From Eledone cirrhosa (lineage: Eukaryota): a stretch of DNA of 64,000 nucleotides. The notes under the pieces were generated by a model. That model made no database searches and was not told the DNA's origin. It saw nothing but the letters and a program-made list of their open reading frames with translations. Each line of letters starts with the position of its first letter. Within the stretch, counting starts at the first letter, position 1. Both the position numbers and the translations under genes were made by a program. This document shows, piece after piece, positions 14,248-63,400 of this stretch. The DNA lies in assembly GCA_964016885.1 (NCBI GenBank), contig OZ024742.1, positions 199,702,001 through 199,766,000 on the forward strand, in the 5' to 3' direction.

Positions 14248-16074
14248 CAGGACTAGAACTGTCTCATTTGAAGGAAATCATCTGGAGAGTCGACTGTCAA
14301 TGTGATATGGTGGCATTTATACATTTTCTGGCGGTAGGGGAAGGTGGCGATTGGGATGGGTGTAGGTCATATCCTCGATTAAGTATTACTGTCGTCGCCG
14401 CGAGCAGCCTCACCTATCCTACTCTGGAGCAGAACCTCTGAGGCAATCACGTGGTTCTAAGAATTGCCTGATAAATGTAATACCCGTTTTCTGCAACTGG
14501 ATACAGAAGATTACTACGCTTCTATCTCAGAGCCTCAACTGAATGATGCACTTGCTTTTGCCAGGAACTTTATCAACATCAATGATGCTGAGAAGGACGT
14601 GATCCTCCACGCCCGTAAGACCTTCTTATACCATGAAGGGCTCTTAATGGATTAATAAGATGTCTGAGGCTCCATTTGACGTCAGTATGGGAGCAAGTTA
14701 CTCCGCAGAAGTTAGCGACCTGATGGATCTGTATATCCTATACCACCTGAAGAATCATTTCACAGGCCTGGCCGGAGGATTATACCGCGACGATGACATT
14801 TTTGGTTTGCACAAGGTAAATCCTAGAACCACTGATGCGTTTCGGAAAAACTTATGCTCTTTCTTCCGTAATCTACGTTTTAGAATAAATATTGAATCAA
14901 ATTTGACTAATGCCAACTTTTTATCTGTCACTTTAGATTTAGATACTTCCCCCTATTACCCGTACCACAAACCTAACAAATCCCTTAGATACATAGATGT
15001 TAGTTCGAACCATATCAAAATATTACCGATAATTTAGTTAAAAGTCTCCCACTTAGAACTTCTGGTCTCTCAACCAACGAAGGCATTTTTAGTGCCTCTT
15101 CCCCTTATTGCAATGAAGCCCTTGCCCGAAGTGGCTTTAAAGAAAAGATTACCCATCTAGAAAACACCCAAGACCAAATAGGACAAATAGGCATAGGCAA
15201 ATTAGTTGGTACAACCATCCCTTCAACCTAGAGGTATCTACATCAATAGCTAGGACTTTCTTCAAATTGCTAAATAAACACTTCCACACACAACATAGGC
15301 ACTATACTATTTTTAATAAAAATACGATAAGAATCACCTACTCCACTACACCTAACTTAGCTAGGAATATACCCAACCTCAACATTGCTAAATTAAATAA
15401 GCCTACTACCTCCAAAACCCACCCTGGTGCAACAGCCACAATAATGAAGCGTGTCCACCCGAAAGCAAGTGCCAGATGAATGACATCGTATATAAATGCG
15501 ATGTCCTCTGAAGCACTGACAACAACAAAACAACATATATTGGAATGACATCCAACAAATTTAAGACCCGGCGGTATGCCCATACCCACTCGTTCAGAAG
15601 ACTGGACAAATCCAACCAAACAACACTCACCGTGCCGCTTATGTCCGGGACTTCAAGAGGAACTCTATCCCCTTCCCGCTCAAATGGATATTACCCCAGA
15701 GCGCGCGCTCATACATAGGAAGACACAAGTGTAGCGACCTTGGTATTTCGGAGAGTTATTTGCCAAGGGTCCTACACTCAATGAACACTGCCCGAACTAC
15801 ATGCACAAAAACTATGCAACGTATAAATCCTACAAATCAGTTCAGCCACCAGAACGATAGTTTCAAAAAACCCCTCACTCAGCAAAATATCCCCTCCTTC
15901 TCTATTCCACCCCACTCCTACCCTCAACCTACGCCCTCTTTCAGTCCGCCTCACAGTATTGAGGTTATGTAAGTACTCTTTACCTACTTGCTTTTTCTAC
16001 TTGTTTAAGCGAACTTGTATGTATGAAACTATGGGTGTATGCTTGTATGCACGTATGCATTTGCGTGTATATAA

Positions 16075-25371: not shown

Positions 25372-26168
25372 CTTGTACTATAGTATTAAGTTGTTAAGTA
25401 CTTCTCAGGGAGATTCAGTGTGCCACAGTATGTGATCTACTGGGTCTTTGAATTACATGTACAGTGCTTCTTGTACTATAGTATTAAGTTGTTAAGTACT
25501 TCTCAGGGAGATTCAGTGTGCCACAGTATGTGATCTACTGGGTCTTTGAATTACATGTACAGTGCTTCTTGTACTATAGTATTAAGTTGTTAAGTACTTC
25601 TCAGGAAGATTCAATGTGCCACAGTATGTGATCTACTGGGTCTTTGAATTACATGTAGAGTGCTTCTTGTACTATAGTATTAAGTTGTTAAGTACTTCTC
25701 AGGAAGATTCAGTGTGCCATAGTAAGTGATCTACTGGGTCTTTGAATTACATGTACAGTGCTTCTTGTACTATAGTATTAAGTTGTTAAGTACTTCTCAG
25801 GAAGATTCAATGTGCCACAGTATGTGATCTACTGGGTCTTTGAATTACATGTACAGTGCTTCTTGTACTATAGTATTAAGTTGTTAAGTACTTCTCAGGA
25901 AGATTCAGTGTGCCATAGTAAGTGATCTACTGGGTCTTTGAATTACATGTACAGTGCTTCTTGTACTATAGTATTAAGTTGTTAAGTACTTCTTAGGGAG
26001 ATTCAGCTTGTCACAGCGTGTGACATGGCTACGTATTTGGATTATAGGTACATAACTCCTTGTACTTTCATATTATGTTGTTAAGTACTTCTCAGGGAGA
26101 TTCAGCAAGGCACAGTGTGACATGGCTGGGTCTTTCAATTACATGTACAGTGCTTCATGTACTATAGT
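25372..26168. repeat. 98-bp tandem satellite, ~8 copies
   Basis: CTTGTACTATAGTATTAAGTTGTTAAGTACTTCTCAGG... recurs at 25372, 25470, 25568 and onward. Confidence 0.95.
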
Positions 26169-36209: not shown

Positions 36210-36274
36210 TATTTTATCTGACGAAAGCGCACCATAATTTGCTTTGGTGTCCTTGAAATATGTATAATGAAATA
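36210..36274 (+). ncRNA. Type I hammerhead ribozyme (family C)
   Basis: TATTTTAT-CTGACGA-AAG CGCACCA..TGGTG TCCTT-GAAA-TATGTA-TA-ATGAAATA. Confidence 0.72.
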
Positions 36275-37869: not shown

Positions 37870-40310
37870 AGTGTGGTTAATGGTGGTGGTGTTTTTATTG
37901 TTGATGGTGGTGATGGTGTTGGTGGTGTTGGGGGTATTGTTGTTGTTGGTGGTGGTATTGGTCATGGTGGTGTTGGTGGTGTTGTTGGTGTTGGTGGTTG
38001 ATGGTGGTGTTGTTTTTGTTGTTGATGGTGGGGTTGGTGTTGTTGGTGGGGGTGGTATTGGTGTTGGTGGTGATGTTGGTGGGGGTGTTGTTGTTGGTGT
38101 TGGTGTTGGTAGTTGTGGTGGTGATGGTGATGGTGGTAGCGATGCTAAGTTGTTGTTGGTGGTGTTGGTGTTGTTGGTAGTGGTGTTGGTGGTTGTGGTG
38201 GTGATGGTGATGGTGGTGGTAAGTTGTTGTTGGTGATGGTGTTGGTGGTATTGTTGGTGGTATTGGTGTTGTTGGTAGTGGTGTTGGTGGTTGTGGTGGT
38301 GATGGTGGTGATGGTGGTGGTAACTTGTTGTTGGTGATGGTGTTGGTGGTGGTGTTGGTGGTGTTGGTGTGGTTAGTAGTGGTGTTGGTGGCTGTGGTGG
38401 TAATGGTGGTGCTGGTGATGGTAAGCTGTTGTTGATGGTAGTGTTGGTGTTGTTAGTGGGGGTGGTATTGGTCATGGTGGTGTTGGTGTTGGTGGTGTTG
38501 TTGGTGGGGTTTTTATTGTTGATGGTAGTGGTGTTGGTGGTTGTGGTGGTGATGGTGGTGGTAAGTTGTTGTTGGTGATGGTGTTGGTGGTGTTATTGGT
38601 GGTGTTGGTGTTGTTGGTAGTGGTGTTGGTGGTTGTGGTGGTGTTGGTGGTTGTGGTGGTGATGGTGATGGTAAGTTGTTGTTGGTGATGGTGTTGGTGG
38701 TGGTGATGTTGTTGGTAGTGGTGTTGGTGGTGTTGTTGGTGGTGTTGGTGTTGTTGGTAGTGATGTTGGTGGTTGTGGTGGTGATGGTGATGGTGATGGT
38801 GGTGGTAAGTGTTGTTGGTTGTGGTGGTGGTGGTGTTGTTGGTTGTGTTGGTTGTGTTGGTAGTGGTGTTGTTGGTTGTGGTGGTGCTGGTAAGTTGTTG
38901 TTGGTGATGGTGTTGGTGGTAGTGATGTTGTTGGTTGTGGTGTTGGTGGTGTTGTTGGTAGTGTTGGTGTTGTTGGTAGTGGTGTTGGTGTTGGTGGTTG
39001 TGGTGGTGAATGTAAGTTGTTGTTGATGGTAGTGTTGGTGTTGTTGGTGGGGGTGGTATTGGTGTTGGTGGTGTTGTTGGTGGTGTTGATGTTGGTGGTG
39101 GTGATGGTGATGGTGTTGTTGTTGTTGGTGTTGGTGATGTTGTTGGTGATAGTGATGGTGGTGATGATTGTACGTTGTTGACGTGACCGAGATGGTGGTG
39201 TTGGTGGTGTTGGTGGTGTTGTTATTGGTCATGTTGGTCATGGTGGTGGTGGTGGGGGTGCTGTTGTTGGTGTTGTTGTTGTTGTTGTTGGTTGCTGTGG
39301 TGGTGATGGTGGTGGTGATGGTAAGCTGTTGATGTGATCGTGATGGTGGTATTGGTGGTGTTAGGGTTGGTGTTGTTGGTGGTGGTATTGGTAATGGTGG
39401 TGGAGGTGTTGTGGTTGTGATGGTGGTGGTGAATGTAAGCTGTTGATGTGATCGTGATGGTGGTGTTGGTGTTGGTGGTGTTGTTGGTAGTGTTAGTGTT
39501 GGTGTTGTTGGTGATGGTGTTGGTCATGGGTGTGGCGTTGGTAGTGTTGTTGGTGGTGTTGGTGGTATTGGTGGTGTTGTTGTTGGTGTTGGTGGTGTTC
39601 TTGGTGGTGTTGGTGATGGTGGTGGTGATGGTAAGTTGTTGTTGCTGATGGTGATGGTGGTGTTGGTGGTGGTTTTGGTGGTGCTGTTGGGGGGGGGGTA
39701 TTGATGGTGGTATTGGTGTTGGTTGTGTTGTTCGAGGTGTTGGTGTTGGTGGCTGTGGTGGTGATGGTACGTTGTTGTTGGTGATGGTATGTGTGGTGTT
39801 GTTGGTGTTGGTGTTGATGGTTGTGGTGGTGATGGTGATGGTGGTGGTGATGGTAAGTTGTTGTTGCTGATGGTGATGGTGGTGTTGGTGGTGGTTTTGG
39901 TGGTGCTGTTGGGGGGGGTATTGATGGTGGTATTGGTGTTGGTTGTGTTGTTCGAGGTGTTGGTGTTGGTGGCTGTGGTGGTGATGGTACGTTGTTGTTG
40001 GTGATGGTATGTGTGGTGTTGTTGGTGTTGGTGTTGATGGTTGTGGTGGTGATGGTGATGGTGGTGGTGATGGTAAGTTGTTGGTGATGGTAGTGTTGGT
40101 GGAGGTAGTGTTGATGGCGGTATTGGTGTTGGGGGTTGTGGTGGTGATGGTGATGGTGGTGGTGGTGATGGTAAGTTGTTGGTGATGGTAGTGTTGGTGG
40201 AGGGAGTGTTGATGGCGGTATTGGTGTTGGTGGCTGTGGTGGTAGTGATGGTAAATTGTTGGTGTTGGTTGTTGGTGGGGTTGATGGTGGTGGAGATGGT
40301 TAAGATTTGG
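37870..40310. repeat. (TGG/TGT/TGA)n low-complexity array with internal ~230-bp duplication
   Basis: degenerate trinucleotide repeats; ~39612-39840 repeated at ~39843-40070. Confidence 0.9.
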
Positions 40311-47637: not shown

Positions 47638-48653
47638 GGAGGTGAGTTTTATTGTAGTACAATAAAGCAATGCAGATATCGGATAAGAAGCACTCTACAG
47701 TTTGTGGGACTGGAGTATGCATAATATAAGATCAAAAGATGGTTAAAGGAACTAACACTGCTCTCTCAGAACTCATATGGTCCTTAAAAGACAAAAACAT
47801 TAAATATAACATCTTTTGGAAAAAGATTTCTTCTGCATCCTCGTACTTGAACAGTTCCCTATCTAAAATCTGTAATCTCTGCCTAAATGAAAAATTTACC
47901 ATTATCTCTAACCTAGAATCCATAATAAATAGACGCTCGAATTTGTTTTCCATCTGCCTGCATAAATTCCATAGAACTTTTCACAAAGTATACAGTTAAT
48001 ATTCAATTCTTTATCAACTTAGAATCTTTTCTCAAAGGCACATATACATACACCTCTTTAAAATATACCCATCTACCTTACTTTAAAGGGCATTATACAC
48101 TCTATAGTACTCGTTTATTCATTTACCTCATCCTATCTTCTCGTAAAACAATAACATTTGTTTTTGACATTTTGAATATTCATCCGCAATCATTATTATT
48201 TTTTTTCCCTCAATCATAAATCTTTTTAATCTCAATTTCATCCTTAATTTATTATTATATTTTTTTTAATATATACTCATATATTCTTTAAAATATACCC
48301 ATCTACCTTACTTTAAAGGGCATTATACACTCTATAATACCCGTTTACTCATCACCCTCATTATATCTCTTCGTAAAACAATAACATTTGTTTTTGACAT
48401 TTTGAGTATTCATCCGCAATCATTATTATTTTTTCTCTCTATCATAAATCTTTTTAATCTCAATTTCATCCTTAATTTATTACTATTTTTTTTTTTTTTT
48501 CTCCCCATCAACGAACTCATTATTAATACATATGAATTCAATATAAAAACTTTAACTTCACATTATTTTTCTCAAATCCTATACATAAACATTTTCTCTT
48601 TGCTAATTTTAAGATTCCTACATTTCTCCTTTTGAATATTCACCCACAATTAT

Positions 48654-56901: not shown

Positions 56902-57965
56902 CACTGCATGACAAAATGAAAAAAAGTTTCTTTATCAAGAGATAATTAGGGTGATTTTAGTTCATTTTAAGGTGCTCTTCCTGAAGAGTAAGTCAGTTTT
57001 GTTCCATCACATCTAGATTTCGATCTGCAATATACCAAATTAATAGAAACGTAATGTCAAGTGTTCTTATTTGTCTTTTAAGAATGTTTTGGTGTTTTTT
57101 TTTGTCATAATGGAAAAGTTGTAAAAGTACATGTAACACATATTAGGTCATGAATATTTTTAGAACATTTTCAATGAGAGAGCTGTATGGATTTTGAAAT
57201 TCTTAATTCATGCCCTAAAATAAGAATAACCGGATCATTTTGTTCAAAACGATGCTTATTTGGATGGAGCAATGCTCAGAGAACTTAATGCCTTAGTCCA
57301 GGGAACCAAAACAATAACGTACAGTCACTGAAAGAAGAAATTTATTGAATCTTTCGACACACACAAGGAACTGGGTTTGGTTTATTGCAAGAACATCACT
57401 GGTTTGATACTGGCACTGAGAATTTCCTCTGATGTCAAAACATATTGGTGGTTATTCATTAATTGCAAGACATATTGATGGTTATTCATTAAGGGCGGTG
57501 GATTGGCAGTATCGGTAAAGTCGGACACCATGCTTTGCAGCGTAGAGTTACGGTCCTTCACGGTCTGAGTTCAAATCCCGCCGAGGTTAACTTTGCCTTT
57601 CATCCCTACGGGGTCGATAAAATAAAGCACCGGTAACGTACTGGGGTTGATTTAATCGACTTTCCCCTTCCCCAAATTACTGGCCTTGTGACTATACTAG
57701 AAATCATTCATTAATTGCAGTCTTTCCAGCTTAAAGGCAGTCGTTTTGTATGTTGGGAATGAGTACCCAGGGATTCCAGTGGGATATTCGAGGAAAGTAA
57801 AAGAGTCATAAGTCATTATCAAGATGTTACTTTCCTGGATCAGGTTTGATGATTTCAAATGGAAAGCTTGAGGTGACTTCACGATCATAGGTTTTTTAAC
57901 TGGAATGCAAAAGGGTCACGCGAAGTTTTCCTGCTTCTTGTCCCTGTGGGGCACGAGTCACTGGA
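56902..57965 (+). mobile_element. DNA transposon remnant, probably CMC/Chapaev3-like, interrupted by a SINE
   Basis: starts TTA|CACTG; transposase-like FINCSLSSLKAVVLYVGNEYPGIPVGYS...GDFTIIGFLTGMQKGHAKFSCFL; family assignment from memory of the motif. Confidence 0.5.
57493..57705 (+). mobile_element. SINE family A, full copy
   Basis: A box 57504-57515, B box 57567-57577; flanked by a repeated ATTCATTAA (TSD-like). Confidence 0.88.
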
Positions 57966-58872: not shown

Positions 58873-59469
58873 ATTATCATCATACCATTAATACCATGCA
58901 GTAATGCCACTCAATGCCAATTATTTACTTATCTTCACTGTGGCGGTTCGGGTCCGAAGACACCCGAGCTCTCAATAGTGACTGACATAGAAAGACAACG
59001 GCCATTCCATACCGAGTGTTTAGAGTTTATCTATGAAAAGAAATTAGATTTATATAATTTCTTCTTAAATATTACCCACAATGAACAAAACATCACAAGA
59101 TATTTCATAACATTAAATACTATGACATCAAACGTTGGTTTCCCAACGCAATAAAACTATTTTGAAAGCGAAACAACTTAAGTAGTTAATATTCTGATTA
59201 AAAGCAAACTAAAACTAAAACTAAAACTTTTTTTTTATATAAAAAAAAAATAATTTTTATATAAAAAAAAATTTTTTATATAAAAAAATTTTTTTTATAT
59301 AAAAAAAAAATTAATTTTTTGTAAAATTTTCCTTTTCTTTTCAGTTTATATTAAGTAGTAAGCGTCTAGTTTTATATCAACTTAAATTTTTCTGCATTGC
59401 GATCGATGTATTTTATCTTAGAGAATGCCGCTTAGATGTTAAGACAATATTCATGATATATATATATAT

Positions 59470-60456
59470 ATACTATGAATAACGAGTTCTAAACTCAAAC
59501 AGTCCTTTACAATGAAATAGCTCATAGAAAGAAGTATTTCTGAGCCATGTAATACAAGTTAATATAAATTAATATATTTGATAAACACTAATACCAACAT
59601 ATAAGTGTTTGTATTGTAAATGACTAAGTTAGCTAGATTGAAAAATACTAATTATAATAATACAGTTTGCCTGTCTCGATTTAAAATAATTATGGAAACA
59701 TATTTGGATTTCGAAGTTTAAACTTATCTACGGAGCAGGTTTGGATTTTGAAATTTAAATTTGTCCAAGTACCACGGCCATTTGCCAATATGATTTGTTT
59801 TTATTGATTTATTATTTTAAATCGAGTCAGGCAAACTGTATTATTATAATTAGTATTTTTCAATCTAGCTAACTTAGTCATTTACAATACAAACACTTAT
59901 ATGTTGGTATTAGTGTTTATCAAATATATTAATTTATATTAACTTGTATTACACGGCTCAGAAATACTTCTTTCTTTGAGCTATTTCATTGTAAAGGACT
60001 GTTTGAGTTTAGAACTCGTTATTCATAGTATCACGGCTCCTCTGTCGAGCTAATTTTTAGCCCCATAAAAACGGCTGTTATTTCTAGCAGCACGAGTATG
60101 AGGCAGCTAGACACCGAAAAACCATGTGCGTTATTCAGTCTTCTTAAATATTTTGAAGTGAAACATACCAATTTTTCAGGGTACTTGCTGAAGAGATCTG
60201 AATTTGGTATTCTTTCACTTTTTCATTTATCGAAACATATTTGAATTTCGAAGTTTAAACTTATCTACGGAGCAGGTTTGGATTTTGAAATTTAAATTTA
60301 TCCAAGTACCACGGCCATTTGCCAATGTGATTTGTTTTTATTGATGTATTATTATAATTAGTATTTTTCAATCTAGCTAACTTAGTCATTTACAATACAA
60401 ACACTTATATGTTGGTATTAGTGTTTATCAAATATATTAATTTATATTAACTTGTA
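59470..60456 (+). mobile_element. Retrozyme-like non-coding element (537-nt unit, ~1.4 units, 220-bp 5' inversion)
   Basis: GAAACATATTTG at 59695 and 60232; 59471-59690 is the reverse complement of 59811-60030; (TA)n on both sides. Confidence 0.75.
60180..60310 (+). ncRNA. Type I hammerhead ribozyme with ~30-bp stem III
   Basis: GGTACTTG-CTGAAGA-GAT...ATC-GAAA-long hairpin-TC-CAAGTACC (8-bp perfect stem I). Confidence 0.78.
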
Positions 60457-60691
60457 TATATATATATATATATATATATTTCGTTTCTGAATTTGTTTAG
60501 CAAGATTCTTTATCTGAAAACGTGTGTTGAAACCGATATTGTTATACTTTGGTAGGGTCATGTTGCCAATAAGAAACACACGCACCAGTTGCTTACACTT
60601 CAATTTATTATAAATTAAATTTATAAATTTAGGAATTTATAAATTTCCGGTTGGTTGGTTGGTTCCACAACCAGACGATTGTTCATATATT

Positions 60692-60734: not shown

Positions 60735-61034
60735 TGGGGATTCTTTTCTTTGTTTTTGTGCCTCTCCTTTGTTCTGTCCTACGCCATCTTGTTTAGGATG
60801 TTGTTGTAATTCAATCCGAAGCTTTGTTGTTATGTAAGAGGTGTTTCCAGACGTGTGGACAACGTGTGAAGAATTCATTTCTTGAGTTTAGGCAATCGCT
60901 ATTAACTCAACGTTAAAACCAATGTAGGAAAAGCATTTCTAGCCCTCTTAGATAGACACTTTCCCATAGGTCATAAAGACCGCTCCATCTTTAACCGACA
61001 CAAAGTAAAACTAGGATACTCCTGCGCTAAGAAT

Positions 61035-61532
61035 ATGAAGGCCCACATCACCAACAGCCCTAAGAGCAACACCCCACCAGGGTGCTCTTGCCGAAAGCCT
61101 GAAGCTTGTCCCCTTCAACAGCAATGCAACACACCCGCTGTAGTTTATGAAGCTGTGGTCACTTCCAACCGACCAAATCAACCACAGGAGGTCAAATCCT
61201 ATGTGTGTATGGCGGAGGGCCGATTTAAGGAAAGCTTCCTGAACCATCAGTCGACCTTTAGGTACCCTGACAAACGATCATCCATGAAACTCGCGAGCCA
61301 CGTATGGTCCCTCAAGGACTCAAGTATATACTACTCCATTCAACGGAAAGTCATCACTAAGTCCAAGCCATACGCAAGAGGCAATCCGTCGTGCGGACTA
61401 TTTTTTGATGAAAGAATAAATATTCTAAAGAGATTACGCAATAGCGATTGCCTAAACTCAAGAAATGAATTCTTCACACGTTGTCCACACGTCTGGAAAC
61501 ACCTCTTACATAACTACAAAGCTTCGGATTGA
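61035..61532 (+). pseudogene. PLE GIY-YIG endonuclease domain fragment
   Basis: 165-aa ORF with GIY-YIG-like VVY...SYVC and a terminal Cys/His cluster; 5'-truncated. Confidence 0.82.
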
Positions 61533-61698
61533 ATTACAACAACATCCTAATTTTCTTATCAATTAGAAACTTTCGGACTTTCGCAGTTATCGCCCTTACA
61601 CCTTTCGCACGCAATTTTGTATTGCCTTGGTGAAGTGAGCATTTCTACGCATGCGCGTCCACACGGTTGTCCTTCCTGTTCCGTATAACCATGTCCAT

Positions 61699-61739
61699 TA
61701 CGAGCTGAGGATCCGCTAGGGTGAAACAATTGTTCTGTA
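61699..61739 (+). ncRNA. Minimal hammerhead motif
   Basis: TAC(G)AG-CTGAGGA-TCC gcta GGGT-GAAA-CAATTG-TT-CTGTA. Confidence 0.58.
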
Positions 61740-62270
61740 TGGTGAACTAACTGTTGTATAACCACTTCTATATATATATATATAATTTATATATATATAT
61801 ATGCATATATATATATATGCATATATATATTTTGAGTATATGTTGGTTGTTTACCGACACCTCAGTATGCAGATTGGAGCACTCGACGAAGTACGCAGGT
61901 TGGTTTGGTTACTCCGGTGTAATGTAAAATAAAATAATTAAGTCAAATATTTAAAATTTGGCTTCCTTTATTAAAGGTATACTGCTATATATATTTCGGT
62001 GACAGCCATCCTTATATATCTGACCAAGAATGCCTTTGTGAAAATCAGTCATGTGGAACTATTGTCATCTTGCCTGACGGTTTGAACCTTACAGAACCAC
62101 CTGTCTCTTTGAGGTCAAATACCAACCTACTACCATCTACAAACTGACCAATGAGAATCAAGACTATTCCTGCTGACAACATCAAAATATTCCTAACAAG
62201 CTCATATGTCCAAAAGCTCTGATACCATCAACACTATACACACAGAACTGCCATATCTAAGAACTGACTA

Positions 62271-63025: not shown

Positions 63026-63400
63026 ATAGGCACAAGGTCAGCAATTTTGGGGGAGGGGGGAAAGTCGATTAAATCGACACCATTGCGTGACTGGTGCTTT
63101 ATTTTACCCACCCCGTAAAGATGAAAGGCAAAGTTAACCTCGGTGGGATTTGAACTCAGACTGTAAAGGGCCGTAACTCTATACCGCGAAGCAGAGTGTC
63201 CGACGCTCTACCGATTCTGCCAATCCACTGGTAAATAATATTGTCAGGCGGCTAATTGACAGAGGTGTTAGGGCGTCGGATAGAATGCCTTGTGGTATTC
63301 GTTCCGGCTCTCTACGTTCTAGGTTCAAATGCCTCCGAGCTCAACTTTGATTTTCATCCTTTTTTCGAAGTCTACAAATAAAGTACAGTTCAATACTGGG
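63026..63400. mobile_element. Two divergently oriented SINE family A copies
   Basis: 63026-63229 minus (A and B boxes present); 63247-63400 plus, diverged. Confidence 0.8.

Follow-up and report, generated by a model that had tools for sequence, protein, structure and literature searches.

A dispersed, non-coding hammerhead repeat of Eledone cirrhosa, probably copied through a circular RNA by a PLE protein

The window analyzed here, a stretch of 64,000 nucleotides of E. cirrhosa (assembly GCA_964016885.1, contig OZ024742.1, positions 199,702,001 to 199,766,000), contains an insertion flanked by (TA)n runs and built of one complete and two partial copies of a 537-nt unit, preceded by an inverted arm. 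Its parts, numbered along the window and named from its sequence, are as follows.

59456..59469, no strand: left (TA)n target, which hides any target-site duplication
59470..59690, minus strand: inverted arm, unit positions 46-266, with its 3′ end at putative start site B
59690..59765, plus strand: 5′-truncated upstream unit, positions 462-537 (76 nt)
59766..60302, plus strand: full 537-nt unit between consecutive cleavage sites; predicted monomer or circle of RNA
59949..59982, plus strand: putative start site A (unit position 184), then hairpin A
60031..60051, plus strand: putative start site B (unit position 266), then hairpin B
60157..60179, plus strand: strand 5′ of stem I, pairing with loop II (60198-60219) in three short helices
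60180..60310, plus strand: complete type I hammerhead motif, cleavage predicted after 60302
60303..60457, plus strand: third unit, partial (positions 1-184, with 29 nt deleted), up to putative start site A
60458..60479, no strand: right (TA)n target

This layout bears out the original prediction of a ribozyme-to-ribozyme unit between (TA)n flanks. The 3′ half of a hammerhead near 59695-59773 consists of GAAA (59695-59698), stem III (59699-59763), GTC and CAAGTACC (59766-59773). The full type I hammerhead at 60180-60310 is composed of GGTACTTG, CUGAAGA, GAU..AUC, GAAA, stem III (60236-60300), AUC and CAAGTACC, with the expected 8-bp stem I, a 3-bp stem II and a 31-nt loop. The predicted cleavage sites are 537 nt apart, as are the direct repeats (131 nt at 95% identity); the further partial repeat extends over 155 nt, with the 29-nt deletion, at a spacing of 508, and the proposed 5′ inversion corresponds to 59470-59690 (221 nt, 99% identity). 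The unit is AT-rich and non-coding, as had been stated: its G+C content is 31%, and scanning of the doubled unit disclosed no useful reading frame (longest stop-free frame, 71 codons; longest ATG frame, 48). Concerning stem III, the claim of an unusual length stands, but the hairpin has 27 positions with 1-2 mismatches, not the approximately 30 bp attributed to it.

The upstream unit has GAAA, the long stem III and GUC, and is devoid of the stem I 5′ arm, of CUGANGA and of stem II. The contrast drawn earlier between both copies was confirmed: the upstream one keeps the C-G closing pair and GUC, whereas the downstream one has AUC and an A at 60300 that produces a C·A mismatch at the base of stem III, where the C-G pair is kept in 149 of the 161 aligned segments having both letters. 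The locus does not hold two consecutive complete ribozymes. As the upstream 5′ half is missing and the downstream mismatch lies beside the triplet, no 537-nt monomer is expected by ordinary cis cleavage at this locus. The window copy, without an intact ribozyme pair, is probably dead.

A one-off local duplication is ruled out by genome-wide copies, and the unit belongs, as had been proposed, to a retrozyme-like family that is dispersed, non-coding and tandem. A first-look search of the 3.0-Gb assembly yielded 3716 candidates, forty of which were scored and displayed 88-100% identity; a 32-nt pattern across the cleavage site gave 436 exact matches genome-wide (control, 0). The 114 loci examined were 54 picked by best match plus 60 consecutive ones on one chromosome, taken from the exact-pattern lists and considered as the unbiased set. 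The genome search for tandem multimers was positive, with 1-3 units (up to 2.9) per insertion in (TA)n and often an inverted arm; the longest arm measured 1571 nt and the median arm of the unbiased set 406 nt. Two intact consecutive ribozymes in one arm, the mark of an ‘active’ family according to Li et al., occurred in 18/114 loci (6/60 in the unbiased set). Many variant copies of the unit were present in contigs from three sequencing runs of one sample, while a search of phage records and metagenome contigs with the unit gave no match. A 17-nt motif common to the families gave 8674 matches, a figure rejected as a copy number, as only 6 of the first 30 came from the retrozyme superfamily. The same motif occurs in an unrelated family of repeats, 600 nt or longer (L270, L271, L276, L284 and L285), and a second short degenerate repeat that carries it explains many other matches.

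Besides the family of the window (family A), several sister families were found. Family B (517 nt, 69% identical to A) and family D (about 490 nt) have a 3-bp stem III; family C (556 nt, 72% identical to A, copies 96-98% alike) has a 27-bp stem III. Single examples with the same architecture are L291, with a 5-bp stem III, and L268 and L275, with the core UUGAUAA. The core UUGAUAU, with U3-A8 and U9, was found in 23 of 25 family C motifs; U9 appeared separately in three family A loci, and U3-A8 is a natural swap already known from the available text of PMC3088659 and PMC4209133. Since sister families with a stem III of 3-5 bp have spread equally, the long stem III can be considered derived and not required for spread. 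Judging by its sequence, family C, which is young, appears the best candidate for current activity; its copy L132:1588-2143 (G000 C2 near 59.455 Mb) combines the UUGAUAU core with a loop II of 75 nt and a stem III of 27 bp that is nearly perfect. The family D ribozyme L173:1700-1830 has apparently three extra bases between core and stem II.

Seven further type I hammerhead-like motifs occur in the window, at 36218, 37192(-), 37349, 30196(-), 49269, 17654(-) and 62276; they have short palindromic stem III loops and represent at least three families, 37192(-) and 37349(+) being an inverted pair. Other repeats of the window are a 98-nt tandem repeated eight times at 25372-26168, a 230-nt duplication at 48055-48495, a 2.3-kb (TGG)n-rich array at 37905-40252, and a 148-nt inverted pair (57520-57667 and 63057-63204) with its members 5.4 kb apart around the locus.

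Concerning the hammerhead itself, the ribozyme region gave a folding z of -4.85 (0/200 shuffles as stable) and the whole unit one of -7.42 (0/100). The core positions were invariant in 103-111 loci each, with N7 being A, U or G in 16, 28 and 63. Covariation was studied in 23 diverse, related copies, i.e. 24 of 103 matching copies picked by dissimilarity minus one with a damaged 3′ end. In this set, stem I showed two-sided changes in 5/8 pairs, and the number of two-sided covariation cells was 51 versus 15 in shuffles, none of 500 shuffles reaching it, as counted among related sequences. Variation in stem III was one-sided, with zero two-sided changes within family A, and 6/7 of its common variants keep or improve pairing, versus 14/62 private stem changes. 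The G·U-rich pattern of variation places the structure on the sense RNA. From this comparison of copies, it can be said that the type I hammerhead fold is under selection. The 3-bp stem II displayed a pairing probability around 0.01 in ViennaRNA, and the thermodynamic folding of four natural copies did not form it; this weakness of stem II speaks against activity, including the cleavage as a monomer that had been suggested. Rfam gave no hammerhead at gathering score in the whole window, nor at E≤10 in 59400-60500, where the only matches were weak, chance-level miRNA/snoRNA hairpins. In the available text of bioRxiv 2026.07.22.740005, eight of nine predicted Xenopus retrozyme dimers gave no cleavage in vitro.

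The strand that pairs with loop II comprises the 23 nt directly 5′ of stem I. The proximal of its three helices showed two-sided changes in 4/5 pairs of the 23 copies and was predicted unprompted by RNAalifold; an equivalent complementarity was read by eye in families B, C and E. Since the loop II helix crosses stem I, together they form a pseudoknot. The folding prediction for the circle prefers the fully zipped helix (around 17 bp), which looks, on geometric grounds, too long to coexist with stem II. The loop II helix may be a pseudoknot contact or an off-switch; as the zipped form would exclude stem II and is favored in the circle fold, it may stop circles from cutting themselves. Base-paired loop contacts occur in all three hammerhead types and matter for speed, according to the available text of Perreault 2011 (PMC3088659).

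Another observation concerns the 3′ ends of the copies, which occupy one of two fixed unit positions 82 nt apart, 184 for site A and 266 for site B, and are followed by (TA)n. Within about 7 nt after each site, the RNA contains a GCUC...GAGC hairpin that is nearly invariant in family A and was also read by eye at both sites of the sister families; in the window, GGCUC (59955-59959) pairs with GAGCU (59978-59982) in hairpin A, and GCUC (60036-60039) with GAGC (60047-60050) in hairpin B. Among the inverted insertions of family A, every classifiable locus has an A end on one arm and a B end on the other (29/29 + 23/23 = 52/52); 16 further inverted loci, with one or both ends unclassifiable, are outside this count. 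An independent choice of ends would yield such a result with a probability of about 2e-16. The A+B combination was also found in 8/8 inverted loci of family B and in 12/12 of family C, while family D, compared with a crude reference, gave three A+B and one apparent A+A. We infer that sites A and B with their hairpins are reverse-transcription starts and protein-binding elements. These copies carry the signature of mobilization by PLE: they are partial tandems in microsatellite targets, with an inverted 5′ copy and with a tail on one of the ends. In PLE, two internal start sites, nicking and extension of both strands and a predicted dimer have been described (PMC11167929), and partial tandems, an inverted 5′ copy, a tail at one end and a (TA)n bias are hallmarks (PMC8557442, PMC3846280).

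A 5′-truncated coding PLE lies close to the locus, at 60793-61770, with the C-terminal part of a GIY-YIG domain (208-aa frame, 60906-61532), an inverted arm of 111 nt and, near 61709, a hammerhead of minimal type. Its family is very large (62603 candidates), with full RT-EN frames elsewhere, and its inverted copies have a 65-nt tail at one end; the same split of ends was read by eye in six loci. Pfam assigned its endonuclease fragment to no family. This neighboring family shows no similarity to the 537-nt unit, from which it also differs in its 3′ end and in its ribozyme, which is minimal. At 15228-15631, the window has a degenerate fragment of a PLE endonuclease. A partner PLE was not found among the PLE copies examined, which cover a handful of the PLE families of the genome, and no GCUC...GAGC pair appeared, among the matches listed, in the 3′ regions of other PLE fragments at the loci examined.

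The nature of the template was approached through the variants carried by the units of each locus. Common minor alleles, seen in at least eight loci, were carried by all the units of a locus in 910 cases versus 112. Sixty-four variants without counterpart in the nearest loci were fixed in all the overlapping units of one locus, and 47 of them, in 25 loci, span different tandem positions; the coincidence expectation in two-unit columns was 0.7. Changes from C or G were 11/64 among these locus-fixed variants versus 263/574 among unit-private ones (p 7e-6); with fewer changes of this origin, the locus-fixed variants probably date from the template stage. Between the two arms, units sharing a tandem position were no closer to each other than the others (2.2% versus 2.3-2.4%, p 0.30). 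No indel was found in the 16 nt around 106 junctions, and 5′ ends did not accumulate at the cleavage site. Given this lack of indels at the junctions, jumping between cleaved linear monomers as templates is not favored. ADAR editing was rejected as a source of A/G variation (locus-fixed A>G, 12; T>C, 13). The patterns of unit sharing and junctions, as read from these genomic copies, fit the repeated copying of one monomer, such as a circle; it is possible that homogeneous source arrays outside the sample could also give unit sharing. On the other hand, twenty variants were common to some but not all units of a locus, and in the inverted insertion L113 four variants were common to the second unit only of both arms, so that a dimer or longer template is needed there. 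Recurrent within-locus differences were somewhat above a simple simulation (51 versus 39 ± 5). The within-locus counts omit the complex loci L021 and L116, and the comparison with the simulation omits also L113; repeated records of a locus, L119, which mirrors L118, and second insertions of other subfamilies in L012, L030, L238 and L255 were left out.

A chance motif in a local duplication might be suspected from the AT-rich sequence and the lack of an Rfam hammerhead match, but it is refuted by the copies, which are dispersed in hundreds, with an invariant core, compensatory changes and, in sister families, the U3-A8 swap; its probability is negligible. The unit could instead be the pseudo-LTR (pLTR) of a coding PLE, the loci being 5′-truncated copies of it, as the anatomy of the insertions matches that of PLEs and, in the available text of bioRxiv 2026.07.22.740005, Xenopus retrozymes are homologous to pLTRs. 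However, what lies upstream of the ribozyme is always the unit before it, the junction of an inversion or flanking DNA unrelated to it: the arms lead through up to 2.9 units and never into an ORF in the 114 loci, and the same is true, as far as inspected, of 30, 24 and 25 loci of families B, C and D. None of the 114 loci is joined to a coding element, a link that the original prediction had named as refuting it, and none has the repeat flanking an RT plus GIY-YIG ORF, as in autonomous EN+ PLEs; neither LTR structure nor protein-coding capacity was found in the unit or the flanks examined. PLE protein matches lie near 8/60 of the consecutive exact-match loci, none as a continuous upstream ORF: in seven of the eight the PLE is on the other strand, downstream or distant, and in L239 the match is set apart from the unit by a TA run and an inverted piece. 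At L291, a PLE endonuclease abuts the inverted arm, which is not a pLTR arrangement, and no homology of the unit to the pLTR of a host coding PLE was detected among the PLE copies examined, from a handful of families. The pLTR explanation is largely refuted and very improbable, a pLTR ancestry of the unit being possible.

Two further explanations accept a mobile repeat and differ in how it is copied. A retrozyme could produce its inverted copies by fold-back self-priming of a single cDNA or from an antisense template; fold-back has been proposed for PLE inversions (PMC3846280), and in 43/52 inverted loci one arm is contained within the other. Nevertheless, in the other 9/52 neither arm is contained in the other, which excludes fold-back copying there; the longer arm is B in 28 loci and A in 24, the unit positions of the two 5′ ends are unrelated, the overlap or gap between them being mostly -6 to +4 nt, and fold-back would not make the arm ends always differ. 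It seems reasonable to consider this mechanism improbable. The other explanation, which we take as unlikely, is that of a non-autonomous PLE passenger derived from linear, uncleaved multimers of a few young arrays, with a side role for the ribozyme and no circle as template. In its favor, ribozyme cleavage was dispensable for the insertion of PAc, the one PLE reconstituted in vitro (PMC11167929), L113 shows a multimer template, and uncleaved RNA would account equally well for the precise junctions and for 5′ ends that do not accumulate at the cleavage site. However, the 47 new variants fixed in all tandem units, in 25 loci and many subfamilies, need a one-unit bottleneck, for which later gene conversion is a poor substitute given that the locus-fixed spectrum is unlike post-insertion mutation. 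Furthermore, with a median arm of 406 nt and two intact ribozymes in 6/60 loci, linear copying alone would shrink lineages, and the ribozyme core is conserved across families 60-72% alike.

The reading preferred here, with a probability of roughly 0.7, is that the locus is a dead copy of a non-coding hammerhead repeat whose transcript would be cut by its ribozyme, closed into a circle and copied into (TA)n by the RT-endonuclease of a PLE. According to it, the family would be transcribed, cut to unit length by its own ribozyme and circularized at roughly 537 nt. A PLE protein, probably a dimer, would bind the two GCUC...GAGC hairpins, nick both target strands and, on a single RNA, prime one cDNA at site A and another at site B. 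Both cDNAs would be extended back across the cleavage/ligation junction, for as many as about three rounds, and would be joined head to head via 0-6 nt of microhomology or a short filler. As for the loop II helix, it would either, in its short form, hold stems I and II together or, zipped throughout, keep the ribozyme off in the circle. A more ambitious version can be advanced only tentatively, its odds being somewhat below even: a superfamily of circular-RNA parasites in which the two hairpins would set the subunits of the PLE dimer at A and B, each two-ended insertion thereby receiving an A end and a B end, with a new pseudoknotted type I ribozyme provided with an off-switch and tolerant of U3-A8 and U9.

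On testable features of its sequence, the family belongs to the animal non-LTR retrozymes. It consists of head-to-tail units of a few hundred nucleotides with G+C below 45% (537 nt, 31%). As in the retrozymes portrayed in the available parts of PMC7229834 and bioRxiv 10.64898/2026.07.22.740005, these low-GC, non-coding tandem units each contain a type I hammerhead and occur as dimers to short multimers, for which a circular RNA intermediate and PLE mobilization have been proposed. Within that same available text, the unit falls within the 51-972 bp covered by the 2026 survey and exceeds the circles of 170-400 nt tested for retrozymes of coral, mussel and axolotl; its stem III has 27 bp versus the usual 1-2 bp with a palindromic loop, and its base-paired loop II contact differs from the archetypal loop contacts. 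Two start sites, inverted arms and (TA)n targets are undescribed for retrozymes in those parts of both sources. The family resembles EN+ PLEs (PMC8557442, PMC3846280, PMC11167929) in its partial tandems and inverted 5′ copy, in having at one end an optional tail, delimited by two internal start sites, in its AT-rich or (TA)n targets and in a hammerhead near the 3′ end. Unlike them, it has no ORF, its tail is of 82 nt and not 30-40, the same hairpin follows each start site, and the ribozyme is not a minimal dimer-type motif; moreover, the rule of one end for each arm is strict here (52/52), whereas the EN+ PLE papers say ‘often’ or ‘optionally’. Within the available text of PMC3088659, pseudoknotted hammerheads likewise have a short stem II held by a base-paired contact to the strand beside stem I, but the contact can reach here about 17 bp and the host is an animal repeat family. 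The U3-A8 swap recurs in those pseudoknotted and in large-helix-III hammerheads (PMC3088659, PMC4209133, both as available), there is no mention of a U9 core in the available text of PMC3088659, and the fungal and protist PLE hammerheads of the available part of PMC4209133 also have a large helix III, which allows monomer cleavage there. In literature covered in part, no paper turned up that describes this family, an animal retrozyme with a long stem III, or a strict assignment of one end to each arm.

The class is known, and what the family adds is unusually clear genomic evidence on the movement of retrozymes by PLE, together with a new, testable ribozyme architecture. The mobilization of animal retrozymes by PLE via circular RNA is a standing hypothesis, so far based on co-occurrence and pLTR homology, and this family shows the PLE footprint directly. 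Being small and non-coding, with its two start sites mapped and two hairpins as candidate binding elements, it can serve as a substrate for testing whether PLEs make inverted insertions from two cDNAs or by fold-back, and if a circle is the template. It also offers a natural series of ribozymes missed by Rfam, in which stem III has 3, 5 or 27 bp, the loop II helix covaries and the core varies. If the more ambitious version is true, the genome of E. cirrhosa would record both the integration mechanism of PLE and the rolling-circle reverse transcription of retrozymes.
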